DNA from: a virus
IMG/VR virus record: IMGVR_UViG_3300011116_000796
Span: 32,001-96,000 of that record
Strand: one strand, 5' to 3'
Length of the DNA stretch: 64,000 bases
The notes beneath the pieces were generated by a model that did not search any database, had not been told where the DNA came from, and was given only the letters and a program-made list of their open reading frames with translations. Positions 24,581 through 60,667 of the stretch are shown here, in pieces. Numbering within the stretch: position 1 is the stretch's first letter; each line of letters begins with the position of its first letter. Both the position numbers and the translations under genes were made by a program.

Positions 24581-25183
24581 ATGATTGGACCAAGCCCATA
24601 CAAAGGTAACTTCCCAAATGTCAAGGACACAACAGTCGATCCGACATCTGTCGGAGGAGTTTTAGTTCCTGATAAAAGTATCAGGCAAGAGTTCATAGGT
24701 TTGTCGGAAGTTCCGACAATAGAGGTTCCATCAACATATGATGATGCATTACTCAATGACGAGTTATTAAATAATTTGGAGGTTGTTGAGGAGAATTTAG
24801 AGGAGGTGTTTCCTCAGTCACCCCCTAAAGAGGTGGTAGCATTTGGGATTCCTGTAGCCGATGATGTATCTCCTTTGGCATTTGGGGGTGGATTTGGAAC
24901 TAAGAAAGAATCAGAACCGATTAAATTAGGAAGTTCATTATCTTTAGATGAAACGAGAGTGCTACTTAAAAACTCTGTGATTTCAATCGGGATTAGTGGT
25001 GGAGTAGGAGGCGACTATGAATTGGGAACCAAACTGATTTACAGTTTGGAACAGCAGAAAAAACTCAACCAGATTCTTTCTACACAGTATGTTCCGGAGA
25101 ATTTGGACACTCAGATTGTCCCCGATGCTCCTTTATTTGTGGTTGGAGATCCTCCCACCGTTGTTGATGGGGGAGATTTCTAA
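24581..25183 (+). CDS. Hypothetical acidic protein, probably virion-associated
   Basis: 200-aa ORF tightly coupled between gp5 and PAAR; ends in VDGGDF. Confidence 0.65.
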   Translation: MIGPSPYKGNFPNVKDTTVDPTSVGGVLVPDKSIRQEFIGLSEVPTIEVPSTYDDALLNDELLNNLEVVEENLEEVFPQSPPKEVVAFGIPVADDVSPLAFGGGFGTKKESEPIKLGSSLSLDETRVLLKNSVISIGISGGVGGDYELGTKLIYSLEQQKKLNQILSTQYVPENLDTQIVPDAPLFVVGDPPTVVDGGDF

Positions 25184-42105: not shown

Positions 42106-42981
42106 ATGACAACAACATCAACACAACCTTGCTGCGATAACTATGCGAAGTGGAAAAATTGGGGTCTAAACTCCAATACCACAAATGCTGAACAACAAAT
42201 TGACAATTTCTCATTTGTCATGGGTAAAGATTTTCTTTGGTTCTATCGAACTTATGTTTTGAAGTACGAAGAGTCTGTTTTGATTTGGAACGTATCTGAG
42301 AGTCAAACCATCAGATCAGAATTTCTTTTGGAAGAAGATAACTTCGCAATTCAGGTTGCAAGTGGTATTTTTCAAGAAATTGTTAAGAGGGAACCAAAAA
42401 TATTAATAATTTTTACCGAATACAGTAGATCGAATTGGTCTGAAAGAGAGTGTTGTGAAAACGGAGGACCAAAAGGAAAACTGACTATTTTAAGAAACCT
42501 GATCGATAATATGTACAGTCGTGTTGTTCGGGAATGCGATAGAAGGACAAGAAATAACGGGTTTCATTGCACCACAATTAAAGACTACTTAGCAAACTTG
42601 TTGTTGAGAATATCATTAGATTTTACTGATTCCCGTGGAACACCATTTAGATCGGCTGTGTTGTCTAAAACACCAAAAGACAATACTCCATCATCAGAAC
42701 CAAATATTATACTTTCTGAAAGTGTTTGTTCTGATTTAGTAAATCAACTCAAATCCCAACTTAAATCTGCTTCGGTTGATGCATTTCCGGATGAGTGTGA
42801 ACTATGCTGTCCTATGACACCAATTTGTTATGATCAGATGAAACAAGTTCAGAAAAACATAGGTGATACAAATAGGAAAATTTCAGACACAATAGATAAA
42901 TATTTGTCTCTGTGTGGTCCTAATTTACCAAGAAATCAAGAAGTTAATTTTGATGAGACAAACTGGGAAAGATGGCAATAA
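42106..42981 (+). CDS. Cys-rich hypothetical protein
   Basis: 291 aa with three CC pairs (12 Cys by hand count); coupled to the tail-fibre stop. Confidence 0.7.
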   Translation: MTTTSTQPCCDNYAKWKNWGLNSNTTNAEQQIDNFSFVMGKDFLWFYRTYVLKYEESVLIWNVSESQTIRSEFLLEEDNFAIQVASGIFQEIVKREPKILIIFTEYSRSNWSERECCENGGPKGKLTILRNLIDNMYSRVVRECDRRTRNNGFHCTTIKDYLANLLLRISLDFTDSRGTPFRSAVLSKTPKDNTPSSEPNIILSESVCSDLVNQLKSQLKSASVDAFPDECELCCPMTPICYDQMKQVQKNIGDTNRKISDTIDKYLSLCGPNLPRNQEVNFDETNWERWQ

Positions 42982-45389: not shown

Positions 45390-46595
45390 ATGATGGAAAG
45401 TGCAACTATTGATGCTGTGAATGTGAACGATTCAACGAGTGAATTACCTCAGAGCACAAAGACCAATACAGTAACATTGTGCATGATTGTCAAAGATGAA
45501 GCACATGTCATCGAAAGATGCCTTTCTTCAGTTGTGCCTGTGATTGACTATTGGGTTATTGTGGACACGGGATCAACTGACGGCACACAGGAGAAGATCA
45601 AAGACTTCTTCGACAGAAATAATATTCCTGGTGAACTACACGAAGTTCCTTGGGTAGATTTCGGAACAAATCGAAGCAAAGCACTAGAACTCGCTCAGAA
45701 GACCGGATACGACTATTCATTAATGATCGATGCAGATGAGATTCTTGTTTTCGATCCTGGATTTGATCCCGATCAGTTCAAGAATTCGCTAACCGCAGAT
45801 CTCTATAATGTTTTTGCGATCTACGGTCAAACAAAGTACCACCGTCCTCAACTTACAAGTAATCACAAACGATTCTATTATCGTGGAGTTCTCCATGAGT
45901 ATGTCGATTGCCATGAGGAAATTGGAGCAAGAGATTTTGCCCGTGGATTTGTTAACACGCCAATCCAAGATGGCAATCGATCTAAGTCTGCTGATAAGTA
46001 TGCGAAAGATGCTCTTGTGTTTGAAGAGGCACTTGCATCGGGTAAAGTTGAAGAGAAAGACTTCAATAGATATCACTTCTATCTTGCACAGTCATATCGT
46101 GACTCGCAGCAATGGGAAAAGTCACTTTCGGCTTATCTGAAGAGAGCAGAACTTGGTGGGTGGAATGAAGAAGTTTTCTATTCTTACTATCAAGCAGGAA
46201 GAATTATGGAGGTTCTCAAGAAGGAATTTGATGAGATCATCCGCATGTACTTCCAAGCCTATCAAGCGGCTCCTTGGAGAGCAGAGAGTCTTTGGGCTGC
46301 TGCAAGACTTTGTCGAAACTACTGCCGATGGGATCAGGCTTATCGCTTTGCAAAGCAGGCACTAAAGATCAGATATCCTGAGGGTGCTCTGTTCGTAGGT
46401 CAGACGATTTATGATTGGGCAATTCTTGATGAGTTTGCAATTTCGTCATATTGGACTGAGAATTATCGTGAATCTCGTCTTGCATCCATTCAGTTGCTGA
46501 ATGACAACAAATTCCCCGCTGATCAGAAAGAGAGAATTGAGGCAAATCTCAAGTTTGCTACCGAATCTCTGCTGAATGAACAGCAGGCCAAGTAA
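45390..46595 (+). CDS. GT2-family glycosyltransferase with C-terminal TPR repeats
   Basis: LCMIVKDEAHVIERCL, IVDTGSTDGT, WVDFGTNR, DxD motif IDADE, YRGVLHE; TPR-like FYLAQSYRD...A...Y..R, AYQAAPWRAE. Confidence 0.93.
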   Translation: MMESATIDAVNVNDSTSELPQSTKTNTVTLCMIVKDEAHVIERCLSSVVPVIDYWVIVDTGSTDGTQEKIKDFFDRNNIPGELHEVPWVDFGTNRSKALELAQKTGYDYSLMIDADEILVFDPGFDPDQFKNSLTADLYNVFAIYGQTKYHRPQLTSNHKRFYYRGVLHEYVDCHEEIGARDFARGFVNTPIQDGNRSKSADKYAKDALVFEEALASGKVEEKDFNRYHFYLAQSYRDSQQWEKSLSAYLKRAELGGWNEEVFYSYYQAGRIMEVLKKEFDEIIRMYFQAYQAAPWRAESLWAAARLCRNYCRWDQAYRFAKQALKIRYPEGALFVGQTIYDWAILDEFAISSYWTENYRESRLASIQLLNDNKFPADQKERIEANLKFATESLLNEQQAK

Positions 46596-46621: not shown

Positions 46622-46628
46622 CTAAATA
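46622..46628 (+). promoter_or_regulatory. Late promoter (CTAAATA)
   Basis: Upstream of AAGGA SD and ATG 46653. Confidence 0.7.
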
Positions 46629-46652: not shown

Positions 46653-49600
46653 ATGGCATATAGCGCACTAACTATTCGCAGCGGCGGCGGTGCTGGTGAC
46701 GGTCGCTCAATTCGTAACACTATCTCTCAAACGGCACACGGGTTTCAGCCTGGAATGGTCGTTCGTAGAGATAGTGCTACGGGTGTTTTTGTAAGAGCAA
46801 CATCACAGTCTCTGTCAGGATCCAATACGGTTGGTATTGTCGAAAGTGTTACTCCAAACACATTCGTGGTTGTTTATCAAGGTGAGATGGACTTTGGATC
46901 TTCGGTTGTAGCCGTTGACGATGGCAATTCTGGATTAACAAATGGGTATGTTTATTATCTTTCTGCATCAGATTCTTTAACTGGTTATATCAGTCCTGAT
47001 GCACCATCCGATCAGACAGTAATTTACCACCCTCTCTTTGTGGCTACCGCTGAAAAGAAGGGAATAGTTATAAACAGCCTTCCGAGGCCAGCACAAGGAT
47101 CGACGTTATTCAGCCCTGTCGGTACAGTAGTTCCTTATTGTGGTGCTGCTGATAGTGTTCCGCAAAATTGGTATCTTTGTGTTGGTGATTCGATCTCAAA
47201 GGAGAACCACCCTGCCCTATATGCGAGATTGGGTGACGCATTCAGAATTAATGGGTTAGAGAAAAATGTTCAAGATGTTGGATTATCTGCTGGAGCAAAC
47301 TTAACACTAATATTTCCAGGATCATTGACTAACGCTCCCGCCTCTGGCGTAGGAAGTAGTAATATTCATAGTCTACTTGCCAACTCATATTACAAACTTC
47401 TTTGGAATGATGATACTGAAGTTGCTGTTGTTTATGTTGCGGGAGTTAATGCTGCAAGTAAAGAGGCAACTTTTAGATTTGTTTGCGATCACCCATATCA
47501 AAATACTGTTCCTCATGCAGATTTTTTCAGTGGTGTCTCGGGTGGTGTGGCATCTATCTTTACAGTTCAATCTCTTGCACACGGAGAAGTCAGTGGTGTA
47601 ACTAGTGATTATTTCTTCTTGCCAGATTTACGAGCGAGAACTGTTTTTGGAGTTGGTTCAAGTACAGGTTTGACATCGACTGGATATGATAGAGGAGATT
47701 TTGCGGGATCTCAATCACACTTGCTGACCGTAAATGAACTCCCACAACACAGCCACAATATTAAGGTCAGAGAGTCTGGAAGTCCAGGAAGTGGTTCTTA
47801 TTATTTGAATCCTGGACAATCTCCAGCACAAGGTTCAAGTTTCTATACAAACCAAGCAGTCACAGAAAATGCAGGAAATAACGAATCATTCCAATTGATG
47901 AATCCATATGTTTCATGTAATTGGATTGTTCGATGGAAAAATGCAGAGGGTGTGTTAATAGATGAGTGTTTGCCGGGACCAATTGGTCCAACAGGACCAA
48001 GGGGTGAAACGGGAAATCAAGGAACTACGGGAACTCCTGGTTCGGCGGGTGGAGTGGGTCCGGCTGGTCCCGCTGGTCCGGAGGGTCCACAGGGTCCACA
48101 GGGTGAAGATGGTCCACGGGGTAAAAATTGCACATGTGTATCGGCGTTTCAATCTGAGGAGACAAATGTCTTCGTTGGCGAAGAAACAATCTACGATGGC
48201 AGTGTTGCGCCAACGACTTGGGTTACAAATGATTACCTGTCCACAAGATTGACTCAACCAACTGATTTTTCGTATTTCAAATCTGTGGTTAGAAATAACA
48301 ATACTCTGTTTGCTAATTTCTTGAACGACGTTGCTCATATCAATGAGTTCAATCCAAAAGAACCAACCTATTTCGGAGAGTTGAGAACTGATTACAGATC
48401 TTCTTTCTTACAGCCATCGGAACTCAAAACAAGAGACATTAAAGAGACCTACACTCTATTTGTATCCGAGAAGCAATACTCTCTTGATGAACAAACAAAT
48501 TTCATCTTCTCTCCAGGAGAATATGTTCTAGATAGAGCATTTTCAATCAGAGGAAACAAAAAGATTGCTATAGGTGGTGCAAATGGATCGGTGCAGAATG
48601 TACCAATATCAACTATTCAAGTTTTGCCAGCATATGATTCAGGTGCAACTGCATCGAATAGATTCTTGCTTAAGTGTCTTGGAAGTGAAACTGGATATAC
48701 TGAACCAATAGTTAAAACTGGAAATTTTGCTGGAATAGGTTCAGAGCAACTGGCATTTACAAATACTGTTCCTCTTGGTTATTCTGGAAACAATCCTTCT
48801 GTTGGTGGACACTCCGGAGCATCTGGAGGAACATTTGGATTCCTGACATCCATGATTGGTGTGTATCCTTGCATTTCAAATGGCTGGTCCGGTCCTGCGA
48901 GTTTCATTCTTGAAATTCCGAATGTTGAAATTACGGCTACGGCAGGAGTTCCAATCGGTATTCCCTACGGTGCAACATTCTCAGGATCATCAGTTGGATT
49001 GTCTGCCATGACAATCTACACAACCATATTCAGAGTTAGAAATCCAAACGGATTCATTGTTGCCGATCAGGGAACACAAGTGCATATCGGAGGCGGGGCC
49101 AGAGCATACGACTTGAATCCAATTGTGATTGTCATGGATATGAGTGGTTCAAGTGGCACAACTACATCAGCGGAGCCTAGAAGGTCAAGTAACTGTGTGG
49201 GTGTGCAATCCATGGGCGATGTTTATATGTACAATAGTGCAATATATGGATTCCCTTGCGGAATTCATAGTTATGGGGGAAGAGTAGTTGTTGATGGCGG
49301 AATTTTCGGCGCAAACTACAATGCTATTGCTGCTGATAATTCTAAAGTCAAAATCAAAGGCGCAAAAATCAATCGAAATGAATTTGGTGTTAGTCTCGTT
49401 AATTCTGATGCGGAAGTAAAGGGGAAGACTGTTCTTGCTAGAAACGGCTACGCATTTGTTTCAAATGGATCAAGAATCAGAATTGATGATCTATCAGATA
49501 CAGCGGCTATCGTTCGTGGTAGTCCATCGTTAGTTGCTCTCAACTCTCCCTCTGTCGTTGTTGGGTCTTTGGTTAGCGATCACCCAATAAGATTTATGGG

Positions 49601-49925
49601 TGGATCATATATTCCAATTGGAGCATCGGCTTCTGTGGACACACTACCATCCAATAATTATTCAATTTTCGCAATTAACAGTAATGTGACATTGACAGAT
49701 TCGAATATGAACAGTAAGGGGGATATTCCAATCATTGGTCTTGCTGCAACGAATGTTTCAGTTGTCAGCAGAGATATCAATACGAGCGGAATTGATATTG
49801 CTCTGAAGAGGTCTGCAATTTATAAAGATAGTGATGTTACATTCAAGAATCCAAAACAAACAAAGACCCCGCAATTGTCGATAGTAGAACTAGAAGATTA
49901 CACTCCGACGCTACCACCAATTTGA
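46653..49925 (+). CDS. Tail fibre with collar domain, collagen-like repeat and C-terminal beta-helix
   Basis: PVGTVVPY..VPQNWYLC.G, FFLPDLRARTVFG, ELPQHSH; (Gly-X-Y)n run; FSPGEY and repetitive beta-helix-like C-terminus. Confidence 0.85.
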   Translation: MAYSALTIRSGGGAGDGRSIRNTISQTAHGFQPGMVVRRDSATGVFVRATSQSLSGSNTVGIVESVTPNTFVVVYQGEMDFGSSVVAVDDGNSGLTNGYVYYLSASDSLTGYISPDAPSDQTVIYHPLFVATAEKKGIVINSLPRPAQGSTLFSPVGTVVPYCGAADSVPQNWYLCVGDSISKENHPALYARLGDAFRINGLEKNVQDVGLSAGANLTLIFPGSLTNAPASGVGSSNIHSLLANSYYKLLWNDDTEVAVVYVAGVNAASKEATFRFVCDHPYQNTVPHADFFSGVSGGVASIFTVQSLAHGEVSGVTSDYFFLPDLRARTVFGVGSSTGLTSTGYDRGDFAGSQSHLLTVNELPQHSHNIKVRESGSPGSGSYYLNPGQSPAQGSSFYTNQAVTENAGNNESFQLMNPYVSCNWIVRWKNAEGVLIDECLPGPIGPTGPRGETGNQGTTGTPGSAGGVGPAGPAGPEGPQGPQGEDGPRGKNCTCVSAFQSEETNVFVGEETIYDGSVAPTTWVTNDYLSTRLTQPTDFSYFKSVVRNNNTLFANFLNDVAHINEFNPKEPTYFGELRTDYRSSFLQPSELKTRDIKETYTLFVSEKQYSLDEQTNFIFSPGEYVLDRAFSIRGNKKIAIGGANGSVQNVPISTIQVLPAYDSGATASNRFLLKCLGSETGYTEPIVKTGNFAGIGSEQLAFTNTVPLGYSGNNPSVGGHSGASGGTFGFLTSMIGVYPCISNGWSGPASFILEIPNVEITATAGVPIGIPYGATFSGSSVGLSAMTIYTTIFRVRNPNGFIVADQGTQVHIGGGARAYDLNPIVIVMDMSGSSGTTTSAEPRRSSNCVGVQSMGDVYMYNSAIYGFPCGIHSYGGRVVVDGGIFGANYNAIAADNSKVKIKGAKINRNEFGVSLVNSDAEVKGKTVLARNGYAFVSNGSRIRIDDLSDTAAIVRGSPSLVALNSPSVVVGSLVSDHPIRFMGGSYIPIGASASVDTLPSNNYSIFAINSNVTLTDSNMNSKGDIPIIGLAATNVSVVSRDINTSGIDIALKRSAIYKDSDVTFKNPKQTKTPQLSIVELEDYTPTLPPI
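47976..48128 (+). repeat. Collagen-like Gly-X-Y repeat within tail fibre
   Basis: GPIGPTGPRGETGNQGTTGTPGSAGGVGPAGPAGPEGPQGPQGEDGPRGKN. Confidence 0.9.
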
Positions 49926-49932
49926 AATTAAT

Positions 49933-50484
49933 ATGTCAACATTTAAACAAATAAAAAACACAGTTTATATTGATGACCTTGAGATCCCCATAGATGTCTT
50001 CAGGGTTCTTGAGCCTAATTACAATCCACAAAGTGGACTTGAAGTTTTAATTTACGATGGGAATCAATTGACGGTTCGTACCAACGGTAAGACAACTACC
50101 ATTAGTGGAGAATGGTCAGACGGGGACAGATACATCTCCAGACAGAAAGATTTCATAGTTTTGATGTCATTGATCTCCAAAGAAGACTCTGAGATAAATC
50201 TTGAAGTCGATTCTATCAAGGATCCTGGTCTTTGTAGAGAAAACGAGTACCCGAATATTTCTGAACTAGTTGTCGCTCTCTGGGAGCACTTTGTTGAACA
50301 AAAGAGTTATGATCAATCTGGAATATACGAACTTCAGCAGAAGAGGATTATGGTAAAGGATAAATACCCTATGAAGGAGAAGTCCAATGCCAGCGATAAC
50401 CTCTCGGGAAAAACTGAAGGAGTACTGCCTAAGACTACTCGGCGCACCCGTAATCGAAATAAATCTAGCAGAAGAACAGATTGA
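49933..50484 (+). CDS. Hypothetical tail-associated protein
   Basis: RENEYPNISELVVALWE...VKDKYP motif typical of small phage tail-associated proteins; 3' end overlaps gp13. Confidence 0.65.
   Translation: MSTFKQIKNTVYIDDLEIPIDVFRVLEPNYNPQSGLEVLIYDGNQLTVRTNGKTTTISGEWSDGDRYISRQKDFIVLMSLISKEDSEINLEVDSIKDPGLCRENEYPNISELVVALWEHFVEQKSYDQSGIYELQQKRIMVKDKYPMKEKSNASDNLSGKTEGVLPKTTRRTRNRNKSSRRTD
50360..50366 (+). promoter_or_regulatory. Late promoter for gp13 (ATAAATA)
   Basis: ATAAATA, then SD AAGGAG (50374-50379) and ATG 50387. Confidence 0.65.
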
Positions 50485-51220
50485 AGATCGTTTAGACGAT
50501 GCTTTGCGGTTCTTCTCTGAGTATCACTTTGATGGTGTTGAAAAAGTTTACTTAAAGTACCAAGTTCAGCCAATCGATATTCAGCGTGGCTACATTGAGA
50601 TGAAAGCCACAAATCGTAAATCTCTTGGGGGTGGGTTTTCTGACCAAGATGCAATCCACACGGGAAGCACTGATACAACTGACGATGATGTATTACTTGA
50701 GAATCTAGTCACAAGTGTGACCAGAATTTTTCCGTTTACTCAACAATCAGTTGGAATGTTTGATATCAGATATCAGTATGCACTAAATGATCTATACACA
50801 TTTGGAACAATAGATCTAGTTCAATATGATCTAACGCAACAGTATCTGACAATGCTTAGACAGTATTTGTCTCCTGAGAAGAGTGTTAGATTCAGTAGAG
50901 TTCAGAATAGACTTTACATTGACATGAATTGGTCACAGAACGTGACTGCTGGAATGTACCTGATTATAGAGTGTTACAGGATTTTGGATCCTAGAATCTA
51001 CCCCGAAATATATGAAGACAGATTGCTAAAGAAATATGCAACTGCTCTTTTGAAAAAACAATGGGGAGTCAATCTCAGTAAGTATAGTGGAGTGAAATTA
51101 CCTGGAGATATTACACTCAGAGGAACGGAGATTGTTCAAGAAGCAAATACGGAAATAGAGAATCTTGAGAAAGATATCGTTTCTAAGTACGAACTACCAG
51201 CAGACTTTATGATGGGATAA
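50387..51220 (+). CDS. 13: Neck protein
   Basis: SREKLKEYCLRLLGAPVIEIN...QIEDR.DDAL..F.EYHFDG, KKYATALLKKQWG.NLSKY.G..LPG, YELP.DFMMG. Confidence 0.96.
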   Translation: MPAITSREKLKEYCLRLLGAPVIEINLAEEQIEDRLDDALRFFSEYHFDGVEKVYLKYQVQPIDIQRGYIEMKATNRKSLGGGFSDQDAIHTGSTDTTDDDVLLENLVTSVTRIFPFTQQSVGMFDIRYQYALNDLYTFGTIDLVQYDLTQQYLTMLRQYLSPEKSVRFSRVQNRLYIDMNWSQNVTAGMYLIIECYRILDPRIYPEIYEDRLLKKYATALLKKQWGVNLSKYSGVKLPGDITLRGTEIVQEANTEIENLEKDIVSKYELPADFMMG

Positions 51221-51224
51221 GACA

Positions 51225-52121
51225 ATGGCATTAAATCCATACATTAGACTTCACAATCATACCTACAAGCCAGAGCAGAATCTGGTTGAGGATCTGACCG
51301 TGGAAGCCATCAAGATTCATGGGTTGGAGATGTACTATATTCCAAGGGATTTGGTGGTTAGGGATGATCTTTTTGGTGAGTCTAGGTATTCAAGATTTAA
51401 TTCATTCTCAATGATAGAGATGTACATGGATACCACTCAGGCATTTGAGGGGGGAGACACATTTACTAAGTTTGGTTTTGAGGTGAGAGATAGTGTCAAG
51501 TTTACAGTTTCCAAGAAGAGATTCATGAGAGAAACTGGCAAGAAAAGGCCATTAGAAGGAGACTTGCTTTTTCTTCCATTGAATCGTGGATTGTTTGAGA
51601 TAAAGTTTGTTGAACACGAAAATCCGTTTTATCAACTAGGCAAATTGTTTTCGTATCAACTCACATGTGAATTGTTCCAATATAGCGAAGAGGAATTTAA
51701 TACTGGAATAGAGGAAATAGATGTAATTAATGAAGAGACAGGATACAAACTAGACATAGGATTGGAGGCCACCTATGGAACGGGATCTTTCAGAAAAGGC
51801 GACTTCGTATATCAGTTCCAAGACGGTTCAGTTACGGGAGGAACTTCGGGAGAAACTGCACGGGCGAAAATTCAATCAATCGACAGCAGATTCTCTCCGA
51901 AAATACTTTCTATTGCCGATGTTTCTGGTAAGTGGCTGTTTGGCCCAAGTGAAAGTCCACTATACCTAACGAAATTCGACAACTCCATATATGCACAAAT
52001 ATCCTCTTCCACAAGTAAAGAGAGACTTGGAATATTGGATATAGCGAACAACTCACAAATTCAATCTGAAGCAAATACCATTCTGAATTTTGATGAAACT
52101 AATCCTTTTGATGACATGTGA
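51225..52121 (+). CDS. 14: Neck protein
   Basis: MALNPY, EQNLVEDL..EAIKIHG..MYYIPR, KFGFEVRD, RPLEGDLLF, FEIKFVEHENPFYQLGK, FDETNPF. Confidence 0.96.
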   Translation: MALNPYIRLHNHTYKPEQNLVEDLTVEAIKIHGLEMYYIPRDLVVRDDLFGESRYSRFNSFSMIEMYMDTTQAFEGGDTFTKFGFEVRDSVKFTVSKKRFMRETGKKRPLEGDLLFLPLNRGLFEIKFVEHENPFYQLGKLFSYQLTCELFQYSEEEFNTGIEEIDVINEETGYKLDIGLEATYGTGSFRKGDFVYQFQDGSVTGGTSGETARAKIQSIDSRFSPKILSIADVSGKWLFGPSESPLYLTKFDNSIYAQISSSTSKERLGILDIANNSQIQSEANTILNFDETNPFDDM

Positions 52122-52182
52122 TTTGAAAGATAAGTTACCTTACATTTCAATTTATGATAGTGAATTCGGGATTTTAAGTATC

Positions 52183-52189
52183 ATACATA
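52183..52189 (+). promoter_or_regulatory. Possible variant late promoter (ATACATA)
   Basis: One mismatch to ATAAATA, upstream of SD-like AAGGGG and ATG 52222; the same variant precedes the RuvC-like gene (9987-9993). Confidence 0.4.
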
Positions 52190-52221
52190 ACAGTATAACT
52201 CCAAGGTAAAAGGGGATTCGT

Positions 52222-55200
52222 ATGTCATTTCAGGTAAATCCAAACGACAGTTTTACGCCAGACAATATATCAATTAATATTCCACCTTCATCTGGTCAGT
52301 CAGAGAGGGATCGTCAAAGATGTTGTGCGGACGCTGTTCAAAAATTACTTGAAAAACTCAGAAGACTTGAACTCACTAGTCCCATTCCACTTTTGAGTCG
52401 AAGAAATGGACTTCCTCCCATTCCGGAGGAATGTTCAAGCAATGCATGCAATGCGGCTTGCTTGAATTGGTTGGAGATGCTATGGAGATATATTTATAAT
52501 CAACGTGATGGTAATGGCGATCTTAAAAACAAACAGGCTCTTGATGCTGTTTCAGAAACCCTATCAAATCGATGTTTCCCGAGGAATTACCCACCATCCC
52601 CACCAAAACCAGAGACTCGACCCCTGGTCCTTCCCGATTATAAAACAATAGATCCATCGCAACCCGATTATAAAATAATAGATCCGTCGCAAATAGGCAG
52701 ACTTGATTGTTGTAGTCAATCTTTTAATAATCTTCTTGTTAAGTTGAAAGAGTTGACTGGTAAATCAAATATCCACGATATGGAGACCGAGTGGCTACAT
52801 GCACCATGTACAGTTCAAGAAGTGGAAAGTGGTTCATGTATTCCGTATTCGAAACGATTAGAACTAAAAAGACTTACAGATGGTCTTGATAAGAACTGTC
52901 AAAACACAAATCCAACCGGAGATCGAGAAGTCGCTGGCGCTTTAGCATGTCAGAGTAAGTGCAAAGAATACCTAGAGCAACTTTACAGTTGGTATCTGAA
53001 TCTACCTGTTGAGCAACAATCCCCAAATCACTCAGAGATTCTGAGATTGATACCGGAAGCGTATAATAATCCATGTTATAACCGTAGTCCAGTTAATACT
53101 GGTGATTTTGTAGATACCGAAGGTTATTGGATTGATGCACCGGTACAGTATCGGTCTATTACCCCCGATACTTTGCCTGATGGTCTGAGTGTCATTGAGA
53201 TTATACCAATAAACAATCCCGATTCTATCAGACCAACAAGTGATCGTGTAGTGCCGTTAGGATGGGAGTTCCGTCCTGAAATTTACGTTCGTGAGCAAGT
53301 TGCGAAGTGTTGCGCCGAACTACAAAGAATTAAAGACGCTTACAGAAATCAAAACCCGCCTATTCAAGGGCTTCAGGAGTTAGATAGCAACGATTGTGAT
53401 TTTCTTGATCAGGTTCGGGCTATCGTAAACCGTAATCCAAACGGTTTTGCTGAACAACAGTTACAAAGAATGGCGAATAACTGTTTTACATTATGGAAAT
53501 GGTGGACGGGACAATTACTGGAATCGGGAGATCCAGAATTGCCATCTGCGCCAGGATTACAGATCAGTCCAATAGTGGACCGATATAATCAATTCCTCAA
53601 ACAATTGAAAGAATGGTGGAATACTCCCGAGGCGCAAAGAAACCCGAAGTGCCCAAATGGAGGGGTTGTTCATCCTAGCGACATTGAAAACGGCGTTGTT
53701 CCTTACTTGCCTCCTCCCGGTATAAGTATATGTGATTATACTTATTGCTACGCATTGAATGGTGCAAGCGCAGAAGACGGTCCTCACGGACCACTTATGC
53801 CCATATTCTCACAAGGGTGGTGGCAATGGTGGAATACTAGACAGCGTGATGGTAAATCTTTGCCTGTACTGAATCCTAAATTCATGAAGAAATTGTTGAA
53901 GTCGTATCCACAATTTTTGGGAATTTCTTGCAGGCTGGCTGGAGTTTTGGAATTCAATCCAGAGCAACCTTGTTCAGTCCCTGCTGACTCAGGACTTAGC
54001 CCCACTCCAGGACCAAATAGACTAATTCGACCTGGTTATGGCGGCGATCATGGTTGTAGTTTCTATCCCCACCTATTCCCATCTGATGGGCAAGATTTGA
54101 CCAAAAATTGTATGAAGGTGGTTGTGTATTATGGTGGGCAACAAAAGGTCATTTGTGTGTGTAAGGATGGTAGCCCAAATCCACTAATTCCAGGAGATCC
54201 ACAACTTTGGAGAGAGTTTGAACCTCCGTTGCCCCCGACACCGGATGATGGACCAGGATTTACACCAACTTGGGCACCCGAAGGATGTAAGTGTATTGAT
54301 TTACCATCTCCATTTCCAGGTATTCCAGGAAGTGGTTGCCCTCAACCTCCCGAAGGGTACAGATCGGCTAGTTTACCACTAGGCAGAGTGCCCCCATTCA
54401 GTTTTGTAAATGCAAATTCAACAATTGTTTTAAATTCATTGGCATACATTTCAAGCAATTTGTGGAAGTCTAGACAGAGCAGAGCAAAAGCATGCGCCGC
54501 ACTAACCAAGGCAGGAGAATTGTATACTCAATACAACACCCTTTTGCCATCAGGAATTAAGTCGTGGCCCTTCAATTACTCTGACAAAAAAATTGCCGGA
54601 GAATGTGGATTCAATCCTCCTATTAATGGATACGATGGCGTTCCACTGTTCAATTATGGTATAGATTGCGTTGGTGGAATTACGGATCCAAGATCACATA
54701 TCAAAACCGTGATTGATTGGGTCAAGTGCCATAGAGATGCTGCTGCAAATAAAAAAGGCGTTGGCGGAAATGTGGGTCGATGGAACCATATTCTGAAACA
54801 ATTTGAAGATCTTTATAATGAGGGTGAGGGCAGTTCATTTATCTATAGAAATGCAAGTGATGCATCTCTAGTGGAATATTCCTCGCCAGAAGAAGGAGAT
54901 ATTTTCACTGATTCAGTTGCGGGGGTATCCGATGCAGTCACACAAAACTGTCAATCTATATTGGAAAGAAGACTGAAAACAATATCGTACAGATTAGCAA
55001 TCATAAAATGCCTGATACAGAGATGCTTTAATAATTATTATTACAGTGATTGCGACAATAATGGTGTCTGCACTACACCAAGAAACTTCAACAGTATGAG
55101 TGTAGTGGAAAGGGACAATCTTGAAAGAGAATTATTTGAATGTTTAAATTACTATTCTCAAATGCTGAATTATCTATTGCCTGCTGAAGTGTTCGGTGGT

Positions 55201-56649
55201 GGAGGTGAGCATCTACGAAGACTTTTCCTGGAACTTCTAGGCAGTTATGTTTACCTGCCCTATAACGACCGAACAATATTCAACATACGATTCTATCCTC
55301 CTAGTTGTTATCCCGAACGTTTGCCATGCGATGGATCATCAAATTCTATTGAGAGATTACGGTCGATTTCAGAGTGGCTTGACACAATATTTGGTCAAAT
55401 TATACCTCAATTCATTAACGGTTTCGCCATGAAAACCCCGTGCTCACTTTATCATATTCTAAAATCTGATTCATGGGGTACAAGCAGTTTCAATAATAGG
55501 TTTTTGGCAGTGGGTACACAGAGTATACAAGGATGTTTGGATTCGTCTGGGGCTGAAAATCCATATAATTTACAACCAAATCAAAAAATGCCTCCTGTTC
55601 CGGCAGGCTGCATAGAACGCATGAAAGAGTTGTGCGATAATTATCAAAACCATCCTTCGCATATCAGCAAAATTATACAGTGTGCGCTTGATAAATTAAA
55701 AACTCCACAAGGACTAGGATTGCTCTCCGATGAGTTATGCTTTCATAATTTCATTGAATGTGATGAGAATGGTAATCCTCGCATGAAGTCTCTTCAAGAA
55801 ATTCAGGATCACTTGAATAAATTATTCAAGAAATTGTTGGAATCTTGTTGTCGAAGTATTTCAATACAAGGGCGGCAAGCAGAGGAGGATAGAGGGGTGC
55901 AGAACCCTGATTATCAGTTTGGATGCTGTGATTATACATGTACGGAATACTGTTTAGCATCAGGTTGTGTAGATGACCCTAATACTCCTAGTGTTCAGGA
56001 GGATAGAGTTTCTTGCTCTACTATTGTAGAATATTTGATGGGGAATGTGAGTACCACCCTACCTAATTGCTTCCCATGTGTAGGTGCCCGCCGCCCCGGA
56101 CGCAGGATGGTTTCAAATTCCGATTCTCAGGATGGAGGGCTTCCGGATCCAGACACCAGTGGTCCAGGTGGGCCTGTCTTTAGTGATGACGCTATCTGTG
56201 GACAACTTATCATATCTACGACAGAAATTGTAGAAAATGGTTTAAGAAGACTAAGAGGCAATCAATCATCGGGTTTACCTAATGACGCACCTCAGATACC
56301 TCCCGTTCCCTCATTCTTTAATTGTAAAGAAGCATTTGAGGCGATTGAACGAATTGGGGATAGTTTAGTTTGGTGCCATACCGGAATTCCGGCTTACGAG
56401 GCTCGGTGTCGGTTACACAAAGCCGCAATAGCGTGTTACCGAGAAATGCAAAGAACAGGTAGTATGTCACTTGAATGCTATCAGAAACTTGAAGAGTATG
56501 AGAAATCGATTGAAGATTATAGAGATGGCTTGCTTGATCAAGGGGCACCCCCAGGGGTGGTGTTGCGGGGTGAAGCACAATATTTGTTGGAAGCAATCAG
56601 ATATATTTTGGAAAACTGCATTGCGCTTCGAAAACCCATAGATCCGTAA
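52222..56649 (+). CDS. Very large Cys/Pro/Trp-rich hypothetical protein
   Basis: 1475-aa ORF with about 66 Cys by hand count, repeated CC-helix units and Pro-rich linkers; inserted between gp14 and gp15. Confidence 0.75.
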   Translation: MSFQVNPNDSFTPDNISINIPPSSGQSERDRQRCCADAVQKLLEKLRRLELTSPIPLLSRRNGLPPIPEECSSNACNAACLNWLEMLWRYIYNQRDGNGDLKNKQALDAVSETLSNRCFPRNYPPSPPKPETRPLVLPDYKTIDPSQPDYKIIDPSQIGRLDCCSQSFNNLLVKLKELTGKSNIHDMETEWLHAPCTVQEVESGSCIPYSKRLELKRLTDGLDKNCQNTNPTGDREVAGALACQSKCKEYLEQLYSWYLNLPVEQQSPNHSEILRLIPEAYNNPCYNRSPVNTGDFVDTEGYWIDAPVQYRSITPDTLPDGLSVIEIIPINNPDSIRPTSDRVVPLGWEFRPEIYVREQVAKCCAELQRIKDAYRNQNPPIQGLQELDSNDCDFLDQVRAIVNRNPNGFAEQQLQRMANNCFTLWKWWTGQLLESGDPELPSAPGLQISPIVDRYNQFLKQLKEWWNTPEAQRNPKCPNGGVVHPSDIENGVVPYLPPPGISICDYTYCYALNGASAEDGPHGPLMPIFSQGWWQWWNTRQRDGKSLPVLNPKFMKKLLKSYPQFLGISCRLAGVLEFNPEQPCSVPADSGLSPTPGPNRLIRPGYGGDHGCSFYPHLFPSDGQDLTKNCMKVVVYYGGQQKVICVCKDGSPNPLIPGDPQLWREFEPPLPPTPDDGPGFTPTWAPEGCKCIDLPSPFPGIPGSGCPQPPEGYRSASLPLGRVPPFSFVNANSTIVLNSLAYISSNLWKSRQSRAKACAALTKAGELYTQYNTLLPSGIKSWPFNYSDKKIAGECGFNPPINGYDGVPLFNYGIDCVGGITDPRSHIKTVIDWVKCHRDAAANKKGVGGNVGRWNHILKQFEDLYNEGEGSSFIYRNASDASLVEYSSPEEGDIFTDSVAGVSDAVTQNCQSILERRLKTISYRLAIIKCLIQRCFNNYYYSDCDNNGVCTTPRNFNSMSVVERDNLERELFECLNYYSQMLNYLLPAEVFGGGGEHLRRLFLELLGSYVYLPYNDRTIFNIRFYPPSCYPERLPCDGSSNSIERLRSISEWLDTIFGQIIPQFINGFAMKTPCSLYHILKSDSWGTSSFNNRFLAVGTQSIQGCLDSSGAENPYNLQPNQKMPPVPAGCIERMKELCDNYQNHPSHISKIIQCALDKLKTPQGLGLLSDELCFHNFIECDENGNPRMKSLQEIQDHLNKLFKKLLESCCRSISIQGRQAEEDRGVQNPDYQFGCCDYTCTEYCLASGCVDDPNTPSVQEDRVSCSTIVEYLMGNVSTTLPNCFPCVGARRPGRRMVSNSDSQDGGLPDPDTSGPGGPVFSDDAICGQLIISTTEIVENGLRRLRGNQSSGLPNDAPQIPPVPSFFNCKEAFEAIERIGDSLVWCHTGIPAYEARCRLHKAAIACYREMQRTGSMSLECYQKLEEYEKSIEDYRDGLLDQGAPPGVVLRGEAQYLLEAIRYILENCIALRKPIDP
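52633..52692 (+). repeat. 30-bp tandem duplication (PDYK[T/I]IDPSQ x2)
   Basis: CCCGATTATAAAACAATAGATCCATCGCAA / CCCGATTATAAAATAATAGATCCGTCGCAA, 2 mismatches. Confidence 0.9.
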
Positions 56650-56678
56650 CCATAATGAATGATATGTGAATTGATGAT

Positions 56679-57725
56679 ATGGAAACCCCCAACATTAAAA
56701 ATGTCTACTTACAAAATGTTAACATCTTTGGTGTTGGGGGATTTCCTATCAAACCGAAAGATTACGTTGATGACTATTTCATTCCTTGGTTGAGGGAGGA
56801 TTCTTTATGGGAGTCCAATCTCAAAAATTTAATCGATTGCTGCAATGCCAGGCAAGTAAAATTTTTACTTGGGGATGAGTGCTCTGAAGAGATTGATATA
56901 CAATTGTCAATCCCAACAGACCACCCTGATTCCGAGGAGTTTCGAATTCTTGGTGTATCAGGATGTAAGAAACTACAGGAGTATTGGATAAATTGGTTTT
57001 CTCCTGTCAATGGCAAGAGTGAACAAGGAACTATTAGATTATGGAATAATTGGAGACAGTCGATAAATTCTCTTTCAGAATATTGGAAAACCACCCCTTC
57101 CGCAAAAATCTGTAAGGACATTGTTCATCCATCATTCATAGAAAGCGGCATGGTTCCTTACCTTCCTATGAACGGACTTCCGATCTGTGACTATACATGG
57201 AAGATAGCAATATGCGGTGGAGATGGTAATACAGATTTACACCCCCCCCACACAATTCCCTTTAGCGAAAATTGGTGGATGGCTTACATAAATGCGAGAG
57301 TTGTCGGGAAAAAAGTGCCCGCAATAAATCCAGTTTGGTTTAATCGAATGTATCAAGAGTATGATAGAGGATTCCGAATATCATGTGTGTCTAAAGTATT
57401 AAGTGATCTGTCCGTAGATTGGCCTGGTGTGAGTTTCGGAGCGATCCCTGCTGGAGTAATTACATTCAACTCAAGTTCTCCTTGTACTGGATTGGGCAAT
57501 TTGAATTCACTACCAACAGATGTCAAAAGGTGGAAAATTGACTCTTCGGACTATAAAACTCCTTACATATTCACCGAAAAGCAAAATGTATTTTCGGGAG
57601 AGTGTTTAAATTCTGTTATTCCGATTGGATCTTCGATGCAGTCCCGATGTTTCTGTAAAAGCAAATTACATACTGTGAATGGCATAACAATTCGTGAATA
57701 TACTCTGACGGAGAATTGTCAATGA
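56679..57725 (+). CDS. Cys-rich hypothetical protein, paralogous to a central domain of the 52222 protein
   Basis: Shares VHPS.IE.G.VPYLP..G..ICDYT, FS..WW, K..P..NP, ISC and AGV..FN...PC with ORF 52222. Confidence 0.75.
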   Translation: METPNIKNVYLQNVNIFGVGGFPIKPKDYVDDYFIPWLREDSLWESNLKNLIDCCNARQVKFLLGDECSEEIDIQLSIPTDHPDSEEFRILGVSGCKKLQEYWINWFSPVNGKSEQGTIRLWNNWRQSINSLSEYWKTTPSAKICKDIVHPSFIESGMVPYLPMNGLPICDYTWKIAICGGDGNTDLHPPHTIPFSENWWMAYINARVVGKKVPAINPVWFNRMYQEYDRGFRISCVSKVLSDLSVDWPGVSFGAIPAGVITFNSSSPCTGLGNLNSLPTDVKRWKIDSSDYKTPYIFTEKQNVFSGECLNSVIPIGSSMQSRCFCKSKLHTVNGITIREYTLTENCQ

Positions 57726-58528
57726 CAGATTATTATTATCACAGCACCATCAGAAAAGTTGTAGTGGCTTTTGCATCTTTGTTTAATGACATATATGTGT
57801 CGAGAAAAGGTGCTGATGGTAGTGAGATTGAAAGAATCAAAGTTCCAATCGCATATGGACCCAAGCAAAAGTTTTTGGCTAGACTTGATAGAATAGGTAA
57901 GGATTTCGATCAACCAATAAAGATAGAGTCTTATTTACCGAGACTTTGTTTTGAAATTGGTAACCTTCAATACGATTCCTCTAGAAAGTTAAACAGCATA
58001 CAGAAAACTGTTGCATATTCTTCAGACAACGATTTATATCGTAGATTGGAGAAGGTTCCATACAACATGTCTTTGACATTGAGTATCATGACTAAAACGA
58101 TGGATGACAATCTTCAAATAATGGAGCAAATTCTTCCGATGTTCGGTCCTGAATTCACTTTTACAATCAAGGCTGTTGAACCAACAGATGTAGATGTTGA
58201 CGTTCCTCTCGTATTCTCTTCGTCATCTATGAGTGATGGTGATGATGGGAGTTACGGAGATTACTCCACAAGAAAGATTACACTTTCAAATATTCAATTT
58301 ACTGCAAAGATGTATCTGTATGGTCCTGTCAAGAGACAGAAACTCATTACACAAACTGAGGCAACACTTATTGATACTGATTTTGTTGATTCTGGTCTTA
58401 CTAACCCACCAAAATACGCTGATATTGTTGCCATGCCACAGCCTGATGCTAATCCTCTAACTTATGATCCGAACGACTTAGGAAAAACGGGTGGAGCATC
58501 AGTTGTCATTACGGAAAATACAGGATGA
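57722..58528 (+). CDS. 15: Tail sheath stabiliser / tail terminator
   Basis: YYYHSTIRKVVVAFASLFNDI, IKVPIAYGPKQKFLARL, LPR..FEI, YD..RKL, VPYN, QIMEQILP.F.P, FTAKMYLYGP. ATG 57722 has an ATGA overlap with the upstream stop. Confidence 0.96.
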   Translation: MTDYYYHSTIRKVVVAFASLFNDIYVSRKGADGSEIERIKVPIAYGPKQKFLARLDRIGKDFDQPIKIESYLPRLCFEIGNLQYDSSRKLNSIQKTVAYSSDNDLYRRLEKVPYNMSLTLSIMTKTMDDNLQIMEQILPMFGPEFTFTIKAVEPTDVDVDVPLVFSSSSMSDGDDGSYGDYSTRKITLSNIQFTAKMYLYGPVKRQKLITQTEATLIDTDFVDSGLTNPPKYADIVAMPQPDANPLTYDPNDLGKTGGASVVITENTG

Positions 58529-58986
58529 TTATGGACTCTAATTCCAATATAGCAAAAGAACTTGATATCAATATTGATGTGACTGAACCGAAGAAAATTC
58601 AACCGGTTAAATCGGAGATTGAATCTAAACCATACAAGACATCTGAAGCAGATGATGATTACAACGAGGTCCGCAAGAATTTGAAAGTTGTAATTGAGCA
58701 GTCTAATAGTGCAATACAAGGCATTCTAGAACTTGCTGAAGATAGTCAGCAGCCCCGTGCATATGAAGTGGTTGCACAGTTGATCGGCCAAACTCTTGAG
58801 GCAAACACCAAACTGATAGACTTGCACCGCCGTATGAAAGACATCAAAAAGGAAGATGCACCGTCAAAAGCAGCAAGTGTAACCAACAATAGTATCTTCG
58901 TTGGCAGCACGGCAGAGTTGCAAAAAATGATCAAGGCACAGCAGAAGCAGATGATCGATGTGAAGCCGATTGAAGAGTCCAAATAA
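58525..58986 (+). CDS. 16: Terminase small subunit
   Basis: DDYNEVRKNL, LELA..SQQPRAYEVVAQLI, VTNNSIFVGSTAELQK. Confidence 0.95.
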   Translation: MIMDSNSNIAKELDINIDVTEPKKIQPVKSEIESKPYKTSEADDDYNEVRKNLKVVIEQSNSAIQGILELAEDSQQPRAYEVVAQLIGQTLEANTKLIDLHRRMKDIKKEDAPSKAASVTNNSIFVGSTAELQKMIKAQQKQMIDVKPIEESK

Positions 58987-60656
58987 TGCGTAAAACTGAT
59001 GACACATATCTTGGCAATCCGCTACTCAAAGGCGGAAACATCAAGATTGAATTCACCAAGGATCAGTTGGAGGAGTACATCAAATGCTCCCAAGATCCTG
59101 TTTACTTCATGGAAAACCACATGAAGATTGTGACTTTGGATCAGGGTTTAGTGACTATTACTCTGTATGACTTTCAGAAAGAAATTGTCAGATCGGTTCA
59201 TGACAATCGATTTACCATCTGCAAGATTCCCCGTCAGTCGGGAAAGACAACATGTCTTATTGGTGAGATAGTGCATCAAGTTCTGTTCAATCAGAATTAC
59301 AAGGTGGCAATTCTTGCAAACAAATTGAAGACGGCCACCGAAATTATGGACAGAGTCAAGATAGTGTATGAAAACTTGCCTAAGTGGATGCAGCAGGGAG
59401 TCATCGAATGGAATAAGACTAGTATCACACTTGAGAACGGATCGAAAGTCATGTGTTCATCCACATCGTCAAGTGCGGTTCGTGGATCGTCATATAACTT
59501 CCTTCTCTTGGATGAATTTGCATTCGTCCCTGATGAAATAGCAGAAGACTTCTTTGCATCAGTCTATCCCACCATCACAGCAGGACAGACAACAAAGACT
59601 GTGATTGTTAGTACTCCGAATGGACTGAACCTGTACTACAAGTTGTGGCAGAATGCCAAACAAGGAAGATCAAACTTCAAAGCAGTAGAAGCACATTGGT
59701 GGCAGATTCCTGGTCGTGATGAGAAGTTCAAAGCAGAGACAATCAAGAACACATCTGAACGGCATTGGGCTTCAGAATACGAGTGCGAGTTCCTCGGTTC
59801 ACAAGACACACTAATCAAAGCATCGAAACTTGCTTCATTGTCTTTCTCGGAACCAATACTTAGAACAAGTGATGGTCTTTGCGTGTATGAGTCCCCGAAG
59901 GAAGCGCATTTATACTCTATTACAGTAGATACGAGTAGGTCTATAGGCCAAGACTATAATGCGTTTGTTGTTACTGATGTCACGCAAGTTCCGTACAAAG
60001 TTGTTGCAAAGTACAGAAACAATCAGATACCAAATGCGGTTTATCCGAATGTGATCTTTTCTGTCGCAAGCAAATACAACGAAGCCTATGTTCTAGTTGA
60101 AATCAATGATGTTGGTCAGCAAATTGCTGATCTTCTTCGGGAAGAGTTAGAGTATGAGAATATTCTTGAGGTGGTTGTTAAAGGAAAGAAAGCACAAAAA
60201 CTAGGAGTTGCCTACGGAGGAATGCGATCTTATTCTGGTCTCAAGATGAGTGTGCAGACCAAAAAACTAGGTTGTATGGCTCTAAAAGAAATGGTAGAAG
60301 GCAACAAATTAATACTCAATGATTTTGATGTTATATCTGAATTGAGTACATTTGTTTCTAAAGGACAATCCTATGAGGCAAGTTCAGGATATCACGACGA
60401 TTTAGTGGCATCTCTTGTACTTTTTGGGTGGATGACAACTCAGCCATATTTCCAAGAACTGACAAATATTGATACAAGAAGACGAATTTATGAGGAAAAG
60501 ATCAAAAAACTTGAGGAGGATCTTACTCCATTTGGGTTTGTCGGAAACCATGAAATAGATGATGCGACTGAATCGATTAGAGAGTTGTCTAGAGAAAGCA
60601 CGGGACAGCCAATTATAAGATCTGATTGGGGTCTACAATCAGACGAGATTCTATGA
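58986..60656 (+). CDS. 17: Terminase large subunit
   Basis: YLGNPLLK, PRQSGKTT, VRG.S, LLDEFAFV, VSTPNG.N, EYECEFLGS, GYHDDLV. Confidence 0.98.
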   Translation: MRKTDDTYLGNPLLKGGNIKIEFTKDQLEEYIKCSQDPVYFMENHMKIVTLDQGLVTITLYDFQKEIVRSVHDNRFTICKIPRQSGKTTCLIGEIVHQVLFNQNYKVAILANKLKTATEIMDRVKIVYENLPKWMQQGVIEWNKTSITLENGSKVMCSSTSSSAVRGSSYNFLLLDEFAFVPDEIAEDFFASVYPTITAGQTTKTVIVSTPNGLNLYYKLWQNAKQGRSNFKAVEAHWWQIPGRDEKFKAETIKNTSERHWASEYECEFLGSQDTLIKASKLASLSFSEPILRTSDGLCVYESPKEAHLYSITVDTSRSIGQDYNAFVVTDVTQVPYKVVAKYRNNQIPNAVYPNVIFSVASKYNEAYVLVEINDVGQQIADLLREELEYENILEVVVKGKKAQKLGVAYGGMRSYSGLKMSVQTKKLGCMALKEMVEGNKLILNDFDVISELSTFVSKGQSYEASSGYHDDLVASLVLFGWMTTQPYFQELTNIDTRRRIYEEKIKKLEEDLTPFGFVGNHEIDDATESIRELSRESTGQPIIRSDWGLQSDEIL

Positions 60657-60660
60657 AACA

Positions 60661-60667
60661 CTAAATA
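60661..60667 (+). promoter_or_regulatory. Late promoter for gp18 (CTAAATA)
   Basis: Upstream of SD AGGAG and ATG 60710. Confidence 0.75.

Follow-up and report, generated by a model that had tools for sequence, protein, structure and literature searches.

Between the neck gene gp14 and the tail terminator gene gp15 of an uncultured T4-like phage we encountered two long open reading frames (ORFs) of 1475 and 348 amino acids (aa), here termed BIG and SMALL. They lie in a 64,000-nucleotide (nt) stretch of DNA, hereafter the window, which corresponds to bases 32001-96000 of the 119,654-bp IMG/VR virus record IMGVR_UViG_3300011116_000796 (67% complete according to CheckV). BIG and SMALL are real, selected genes that are confined to one clade, paralogous, modular and fast-evolving, and they are located inside the late-gene block. 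The explanation that we tentatively favour is that they encode clade-specific accessory virion proteins positioned near the neck and built of cysteine-stapled helical modules joined by Pro-rich linkers; late transcription, virion association, location at the neck and disulfide chemistry are properties that we infer from the sequence and its context.

Location of BIG and SMALL

The insert is flanked upstream by genes for a gp13-like neck protein (head-tail adaptor; 50387-51220, + strand; phrog_211, E 2.4e-40) and for the gp14 neck protein (head closure; 51225-52121, + strand; PF11649 T4_neck-protein, E 2.9e-36; phrog_460, E 1.5e-65), and downstream by the gene for gp15, the tail sheath stabiliser/terminator (57722-58528, + strand; PF16724 T4-gp15_tss, E 4.6e-62). 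Both the profile matches and the gene order are those of the T4-like neck/terminator set. As reported in a preliminary description of this DNA, gp14 and gp15 are parted by BIG (52222-56649, + strand) and SMALL (56679-57725, + strand). BIG follows gp14 after a spacer of 100 nt, and SMALL is coupled to gp15 in the manner previously described, the TGA of SMALL overlapping the ATG of gp15 at 57722 (ATGA). BIG contains 66 Cys residues and SMALL 13. Both are orphans in which no signal peptide-like or membrane segment was found, and BIG has no known domain. The impression that the insert is devoid of mobile-element and nuclease functions is borne out by Pfam, PHROGs and NCBIfam, which detect no nuclease, integrase or transposase domain in it.

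Distribution of the insertion

Eighty viral contig loci were fetched by similarity to gp14, and gp14 and gp15 were placed by tblastn. The distinct IMG/VR loci examined number 82 (L004, L005, L006 and L013-L091); duplicate contigs (L003, L099 and L100), sub-loci (L092-L098) and two loci without gp14 (L007 and L008) were left out of this count. Both genes are present in 76 of the 82 loci and are adjacent in 73 of these, as is considered normal for this gene pair. The gap between them is 3-54 nt in 65 of the adjacent loci and 165-282 nt in the other eight, solely because the tblastn match to gp14 ended 34-105 residues early in the latter. In the 73 insert-free loci gp14 is 39-76% identical to that of the window. 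The three remaining loci (L004, L005 and L006) are the closest relatives, with gp14 89-97% identical, and have a gap of 5.19-5.21 kb that contains orthologues of BIG and SMALL in the same order. Partial BIG, SMALL and gp15 are also found in L007 and L008, and L013 terminates 114 nt beyond gp14, thereby including the spacer and the first few codons of BIG.

A contig from one metagenome run (X7) links position 51887 straight to 57721, the structure to be expected if the same water also contains an insert-free relative, and a profile of BIG and SMALL finds no match in the 168-kb sequence of a 93%-complete relative. Given these two observations and the adjacency of gp14 and gp15 in the other loci, the insertion is lineage-specific.

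Searches for relatives

A profile constructed from BIG residues 296-1345 and SMALL (1063 positions) was compared with 1.84 billion representative proteins and gave three matches, all from the same clade. The homologue search with SMALL gave three matches among 538 candidates, one of which is the query itself, and that with BIG gave two among 8000 scored, one of them 99% identical to the query; residues 1-300 of BIG matched none of 2656 candidate shorter proteins. A scan of metagenome contigs recovered only two contigs, both already known from IMG/VR, and a scan of genome contigs found no match for the family. Neither megablast of the 8.6-kb locus nor tblastn of BIG and SMALL found a match in a collection of 50,697 phage genome records. 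No Pfam family matches either protein at E <= 0.1, and four pieces of BIG gave none at E <= 10. PHROGs and NCBIfam contain no match for BIG or SMALL, the PADLOC set of anti-phage defence families gave none at E <= 0.1, a profile search of PDB sequences returned no matches and the ESM Atlas provided no usable match for either protein.

The view that the family is undescribed is therefore upheld, as profile search and library scans match nothing outside the clade and the structure searches, made with low-confidence models, gave no significant match. In particular, the libraries and structure searches produced no confident match to a known enzyme or fibre family, the type of result that the preliminary description had named as telling against it. 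A search of full-text literature (supplements not covered) likewise revealed no description of genes of this type. The protein family is new, but the setting in which it occurs, a lineage-specific insertion in the T4-like structural module, is of a known kind.

Selection and divergence

The ratio of nonsynonymous to synonymous substitution rates (dN/dS) amounts to 0.29-0.31 in BIG and 0.14-0.20 in SMALL, with dS of about 0.9-2. Because long frames are kept in three lineages (represented by the window, L003 and L005), dN/dS is low, Cys columns are invariant and an indel is in frame, BIG and SMALL are real genes under purifying selection. The absence of known domains and the narrow distribution might be expected of decaying or non-functional inserted DNA, but this is contradicted by the retention of frames of 1320-1475 aa and 348-351 aa in the three lineages, as well as by the dN/dS values of 0.14-0.31, the invariant cysteines and the in-frame indels, and it is therefore extremely improbable.

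Divergence of the insert exceeds that of its surroundings. Between the window and L003, BIG is 65% identical (dN 0.28, dS 0.98) and SMALL 78% identical (dN 0.13, dS 0.92), whereas gp13, gp14 and gp15 are 97-98% identical (dN 0.011-0.013, dS 0.16-0.41). Since dS is higher in BIG and SMALL than in the flanks, the insert appears to have a partly separate recombination history. Modules of BIG have been gained, lost or relocated between lineages, and fast modular divergence accompanied by in-frame indels is a pattern typical of exposed phage proteins. Variation is also seen among strains. In runs X4, X7 and X8 (positions 51225-58528) the assemblies fragment into short contigs across BIG, with differences of 2-5%, and the flanking pieces of gp14, SMALL and gp15 differ by <1%, which suggests that strain-level microdiversity is concentrated in BIG.

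Paralogy and modular organisation

The relationship between the two proteins, noticed earlier as a duplicated central domain, is confirmed by blastp (BIG 453-648 against SMALL 123-327, 28% identity, E 3e-21) and by genome tblastn (E 7.6e-20), and it extends further than was first described. In a six-sequence alignment of three BIG and three SMALL proteins, SMALL residues 1-328 correspond to BIG residues ~325-648 (53194-54165, + strand) and 10 Cys columns are invariant in all sequences. On the basis of these three comparisons SMALL is a copy of the central third of BIG, or vice versa. SMALL orthologues from the three lineages are of almost constant length (348, 349 and 351 aa) and all 13 Cys residues are invariant in a four-sequence alignment. 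The BIG orthologues are more variable, at 1343 aa in L003 and 1320 aa in L005 as compared with 1475 aa in the window; of 82 alignment columns that hold any Cys, 47 are invariant across the three.

BIG (the coordinates that follow are all on the + strand) begins with a peptide conserved in orthologue alignments, residues 1-22 (52222-52287), in which M1, S2, F3, Q4, N6, P7, D9, S10, P13, N15, I20 and P21 are invariant and which is a candidate anchoring segment. The N-terminal peptide is followed by a hypervariable stretch, residues 100-300 being mostly gapped in the orthologues. CC-module 1 (residues 30-121; 52309-52584) consists of a CC-helix and then a Cx3C-helix with the motif LW..IYN and a C[FY] end. 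Between this and CC-module 2 is a tandem repeat of two 30-nt units (52633-52692; Tandem Repeats Finder score 106, 93% matches), which codes for two copies of a 10-aa unit within a Pro-rich linker and is the site of an indel in one metagenome contig. CC-module 2 (residues 160-289; 52699-53088) is gapped in both orthologues, L003 and L005 lacking residues ~125-295. Downstream of the region shared with SMALL, a Pro-rich linker with a CKC motif (residues 649-727; 54166-54402) shows in-frame indel polymorphism, with 12 nt inserted after 54348 in contigs from two of the four runs examined. The best-conserved domain (residues 728-985; 54403-55176) is 52-78% identical among orthologues and is predicted to be all-helical. 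It is succeeded by a C-terminal CC-rich region (residues 1191-1295; 55792-56106) weakly similar to CC-module 1, and by a variable C-terminal domain formed by the last 130 residues (1346-1475; 56257-56646), which is missing in the L005 lineage.

Five CC units of BIG had been proposed as repeats, and this was only partly substantiated. A hidden Markov model (HMM) of the N-terminal module from three orthologues detected an extra internal copy at a different position in the L005 orthologue (residues 582-666, independent E-value 2.6e-7). When the HMM was built without the second unit of the window, BIG 160-289 scored 12.3 bits, a value reached by one of 500 shuffled sequences, and BIG 1191-1295 scored 8.9 bits, reached by none of 500. 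In contrast, the scores of the 'KCC' unit at residue 363 of BIG and of the CC unit of SMALL were reached by 87 and 320 of 500 shuffles, respectively, so that these two do not score as copies of this module.

Composition and cysteine chemistry

The proteins are rich in Cys, Pro and Trp, as had been remarked. BIG contains 4.5% Cys, 8.9% Pro and 1.6% Trp (24 residues), and SMALL 3.7% each of Cys and Trp (13 residues of each), set against a genome median of 0.85% Cys among 64 ORFs of >= 200 aa. There are five CC, two CxC, four Cx3C, five Cx4C and one CxxC motifs in BIG, and one CC, one CxC and no CxxC in SMALL; His accounts for ~1.2-1.4% of residues in both. Classical zinc fingers or zinc ribbons are unlikely, since BIG has a single CxxC among its 66 Cys residues, SMALL has none and His is scarce; paired CxxC/CxxH knuckles are lacking, and there is no profile match in Pfam or NCBIfam.

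Metallothionein-like proteins contain vicinal CC and CxC motifs, and both are found in BIG and SMALL. It is conceivable, though rather unlikely, that the cysteines bind zinc, copper or an iron-sulfur cluster instead of forming disulfides, in which case the modules would serve in metal binding or storage; this could apply wherever the proteins are located. Synthesis in a reducing cytoplasm and the failure to detect an oxidase among the ORFs scanned on the contig would be in keeping with such a role, and one weak fold match is to a copper-storage helical bundle, at a Z score of 6.8 that is no higher than those of unrelated matches. The near absence of CxxC, the low His content (1.2% in BIG) and the failure to match any metal-binding family argue against it. 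By analogy, disulfide formation after lysis appears to be the likeliest chemistry; the freshwater cyanophage Pam3, in which virion parts are disulfide-linked, provides a precedent for disulfide-linked fibres (PMC9942802).

Transcriptional context

The motif CTAAATA matches the window 12 times, nine of which lie 8-70 nt upstream of a start codon on the same strand (3622, 12210, 20097, 30607, 38068, 45347, 46622 and 60661 on the + strand and 9512 on the - strand). It is located mostly in short spacers ahead of structural genes, often as aCTAAATAg, and differs by one base from the late promoters published for phages S-PM2 and T4, given as NATAAATA and TATAAATA in PMC2984593. On account of this likeness to NATAAATA/TATAAATA, CTAAATA is likely to be a late-promoter variant of this phage group. 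The T4 sequence TATAAATA itself is present at a single site in the window (minus strand), a frequency not above chance expectation, and scans for sigma-70 promoters and for terminators gave signals at chance level.

The last CTAAATA before BIG and SMALL (46622-46628, + strand) is 31 nt upstream of a 1090-aa fibre-like ORF and the next (60661-60667, + strand) is 49 nt upstream of gp18; the window scan found none between 46628 and 60661. The arrangement in the L005 lineage is alike: motifs stand at 371 and 14055, with none between them. The insert is embedded in an unbroken same-strand run comprising the fibre-like ORF, gp13, gp14, BIG, SMALL, gp15, gp16 and gp17, so that an apparent single late unit (46653-60656) spans both genes. 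As there is no internal CTAAATA, either here or in L005, and no terminator signal above chance, BIG and SMALL most likely share one late transcript with gp13 through gp17. The spacer between gp14 and BIG contains a 13-nt block, GTATCATACATAA (52178-52190, + strand), ~40 nt upstream of the BIG start. This block is conserved in a spacer alignment of the three lineages (window, L003 and L005) and is also present at the end of L013, although the rest of the spacer around it and the BIG gene have diverged. Possibly it acts as a signal for regulation or processing.

A place in the late operon beside head-completion and packaging genes would also suit internal proteins that are packaged and ejected into the host with the DNA. 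We regard this as highly unlikely for BIG and SMALL, as their size and their Cys and Pro content fit poorly with passage through the tail, and no T4-type motif for capsid targeting or for cleavage by the prohead protease was seen by eye at the N-termini.

Other cysteine-rich proteins and the proposed wider family

ORFs starting at 42106, 42991 and 146 had been assigned to one expanded family with BIG and SMALL. Homology is not supported: BLAST gave no match of any of the three to BIG or SMALL, hhalign probabilities were 0.3-0.7%, and the module HMM gave no significant score for 42991 and a marginal one for 42106 (5.5 bits, reached by 7 of 500 shuffles, with seven regions tested). ORF 146 contains 2.1% Cys and shows no similarity. 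What does stand is a resemblance in composition, together with restriction to the clade as judged from fragmentary records, for 42106 and for the C-terminal extension of 42991. ORF 42106 (42106-42981, + strand; 291 aa, 4.1% Cys) is similar in composition to BIG and SMALL and was absent from all five relatives' records searched, one of them 93% complete. ORF 42991 (42991-45327, + strand; 778 aa) contains 4.0% Cys and 10.2% Pro and shares with 42106 a style of CC motifs, Trp and Pro-rich linkers. These proteins therefore constitute a clade-restricted set in one compositional style, without support from homology for a single family.

ORF 42991 is a composite. Its residues ~5-122 correspond to a conserved structural-module protein of ~113 aa (phrog_3304/phrog_1084; phrog_3304, annotated as 'L-shaped tail fiber protein assembly', matches at E 3.4e-12), to which a Cys/Pro/Trp-rich C-terminal extension of ~650 aa is attached, both here and in the L005 lineage. 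A counterpart of residues 371-778 of the extension was detected in the insert-carrying L005 lineage alone (47% identity), and a scan of viral contigs with 42991 gave no match. Four insert-free relatives match the N-terminal domain alone. Three of these matches are frames of ~114-116 aa, of which L096 has a clean stand-alone ORF of 113 aa and the two others each have an in-frame TGA; the fourth lies at the beginning of a 544-aa frame interrupted by two stops (G005). The stand-alone ~113-aa protein of insert-free phages precedes the same glycosyltransferase gene as 42991 does. This family-2 glycosyltransferase gene (45390-46595; phrog_13126), located in the fibre-gene region of the window and beside the 113-aa protein in a relative too, may encode an enzyme that glycosylates virion proteins.

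The match of 42991 to a fibre-assembly family raises the possibility that BIG and SMALL are assembly factors, that is, chaperones or scaffolds for the neck-tail joint or the fibres that are absent from the mature particle. Their location, with neck genes on one side and the terminator gene on the other, accords with this, as does the coupling of SMALL to gp15. A modular, hypervariable protein of 1475 aa would, however, be atypical of a chaperone, and 73 of 76 relatives build the same neck without BIG and SMALL, so that we consider such a function unlikely. It is equally unlikely, in our estimation, that the common style reflects a recently born, clade-confined family, possibly of de novo origin, whose 'extracellular-type' CC/CxC helical modules spread to 42106, the 42991 extension, BIG and SMALL and build a disulfide-cross-linked, oxidation-hardened collar or coat on the virion. 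Were this reading of a disulfide coat true, it would amount to a redox-cured exoskeleton, new for tailed phages.

Possible role of BIG and SMALL

The interpretation of BIG and SMALL as accessory virion components is suggested by their position, co-orientation and coupling to gp15, by a conserved N-terminus that precedes variable modules, by their fast modular evolution and by the occurrence of a similar style fused to a fibre-region protein. The earlier suggestion of a neck- or head-associated appendage or cross-linked coat is likewise plausible in view of the gene position, the co-orientation, the coupling to gp15 and the lack of a promoter motif belonging to the insert itself. The genes entered the late structural operon of one uncultured freshwater T4-like lineage between gp14 and gp15, and one was derived from the other by partial duplication. 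Under this interpretation the products would attach near the neck or the tail-terminator junction as extra virion components, with the short conserved N-terminus of BIG as anchor and the variable modules directed outward. Their helical units would be stapled by cysteines (CC, CxC and Cx3-4C) and separated by Pro-rich linkers. The cysteines would be reduced in the cytoplasm during synthesis and, after lysis in oxic water, would be oxidised to intra- or inter-chain disulfides, thereby hardening the appendage.

Several results weigh against this proposal. Neither protein has detectable similarity to any structural protein. AlphaFold2 gave no usable model of SMALL (predicted local distance difference test score, pLDDT, of 30) and only a weak one of BIG 728-985 (mean pLDDT 55.9, helices only). 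The fold matches obtained with VIA-align for the latter low-confidence model are generic helical bundles with a best Z of 7.6; Foldseek, run with the same model on PDB and BFVD, found nothing at E <= 0.001. A Pfam scan of 108 ORFs from the 67%-complete 119.6-kb record (48 in the window and 60 outside it, about a dozen, mostly short, of the 119 called being left out) revealed no thiol oxidase, Dsb protein, thioredoxin or glutaredoxin. The elevated dS of the insert (0.92-0.98 against 0.16-0.41 in the flanks) could result from recombination with unsampled lineages and not from surface exposure. Finally, the g15-g18 hyperplastic region of marine cyanomyoviruses is a lineage-variable insertion that carries 4-14 host-like metabolic genes (Millard et al. 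2009, as set out in PMC2984593), and position within a structural module is for this reason weak evidence.

The same precedent of non-structural genes near g15-g18 bears on the principal alternative, in which BIG and SMALL are late-expressed, non-virion cargo of a hyperplastic spot that rides in the structural operon and possibly acts in or on the host, for example in takeover, superinfection exclusion, counter-defence or lysis. This is the less probable of the two but the foremost of the competing explanations. It would account for a lineage-specific insert, seen in 3 of 76 loci and missing from the 93%-complete relative, and for fast-evolving orphan genes. On the other hand, the size and the Cys/Pro richness of BIG and SMALL are unusual for cytoplasmic effectors, no match was found in PADLOC, Pfam or NCBIfam, the insert has no promoter motif of its own and SMALL overlaps gp15. 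The similar extension on a tail-fibre-region protein also points to the particle.

Comparison with known systems

T4 fibritin (wac) is an accessory, non-essential collar/whisker protein that is encoded beside gp13/gp14; its N-terminal end is conserved and its distal part variable. BIG and SMALL resemble it in adjoining neck genes in a late operon and in the conserved N-terminus followed by a variable remainder. Fibritin is not Cys-rich, however, and its gene precedes gp13, whereas BIG and SMALL lie between gp14 and gp15; moreover, no Pfam or PHROGs family, and hence no fibritin model, matches them (E <= 0.1, and E <= 10 for the four BIG pieces in Pfam). Immunoglobulin-like and other decoration domains of the Hoc type are lineage-specific, dispensable, modular and fast-evolving additions to virions. 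If BIG and SMALL are virion parts they would share the lineage specificity, modularity and rate of evolution of these domains, but no immunoglobulin-like or decoration domain was found in them and the modelled part is predicted to be helical, not a beta-sandwich.

As a lineage-variable insertion in an otherwise syntenic T4-like structural module, the insert is comparable with the cyanomyovirus g15-g18 region (PMC2984593). It differs in occupying the gp14/gp15 junction and in comprising two paralogous orphan giants and no metabolic genes, and gp15 of this phage is only ~38% identical to that of cyanomyoviruses. The freshwater myophage Pam3 offers a parallel in that Cys-rich regions and disulfides hold its fibres (PMC9942802), and so sets a precedent for phage appendages stabilised by redox chemistry; Pam3 has a few cysteines in known baseplate and fibre proteins, whereas here whole proteins of unknown fold contain 13-66 Cys residues.

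If BIG and SMALL are virion parts, they would define a new kind of phage appendage that is large, modular and clade-confined, with dozens of conserved cysteines and rapid turnover of modules. One could then study by experiment how particles are stabilised in natural waters in a redox-dependent manner and how new families of structural proteins arise and spread among phages. Should their role not be structural, they remain an orphan pair of unusual size that is clearly under selection, occupies a fixed place in an otherwise rigid gene order and is useful as a lineage marker. In practical terms, work on them is limited by an uncultured phage and a tiny family.

Genome layout and minor observations

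The record has the standard T4-like gene layout according to Pfam and PHROGs. A block of replication and recombination genes (gp46-like, UvsW, UvsY, RNase H and gp32) is followed by baseplate genes (gp53, gp5, PAAR, gp25, gp6, gp7-like and gp8), by large fibre-like ORFs and then by gp13, gp14, gp15, gp16, gp17, gp18 and gp19, with portal, protease, scaffold and gp23 genes downstream. Identity of gp15 to that of isolates does not exceed ~40% among 2064 matching phage records, the best matches being cyanomyoviruses, so that by sequence the phage is distant from isolates. Contigs from 20 public runs, which belong to 11 studies, contain near-identical DNA; the runs are labelled as freshwater, lake, wetland, aquatic, estuary or viral metagenomes, and one of the runs may be the source sample.

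Two further ORFs have a raised Cys content. A 937-aa ORF upstream of the window (G000:C1:28900-31713; L010:8900-11713) has 4.5% Cys, a Gly/Cys-rich C-terminal half with CxC and CCC motifs and no known domain. It was rejected as a relative of BIG and SMALL, to which it has no similarity, and it is kept in insert-free relatives, with matches in two of five records (49% and 29% identity). Another, of 225 aa (25183-25860), is situated between the gp5-like and PAAR genes; it contains 3.6% Cys and 11% Gly and has no Pfam match. Elsewhere in the record (G000:C1:116267-118491; L012:12268-14492, minus strand), one encoded protein contains a dockerin type I domain and its neighbour an N-terminal methylation motif like that of type IV pilins.

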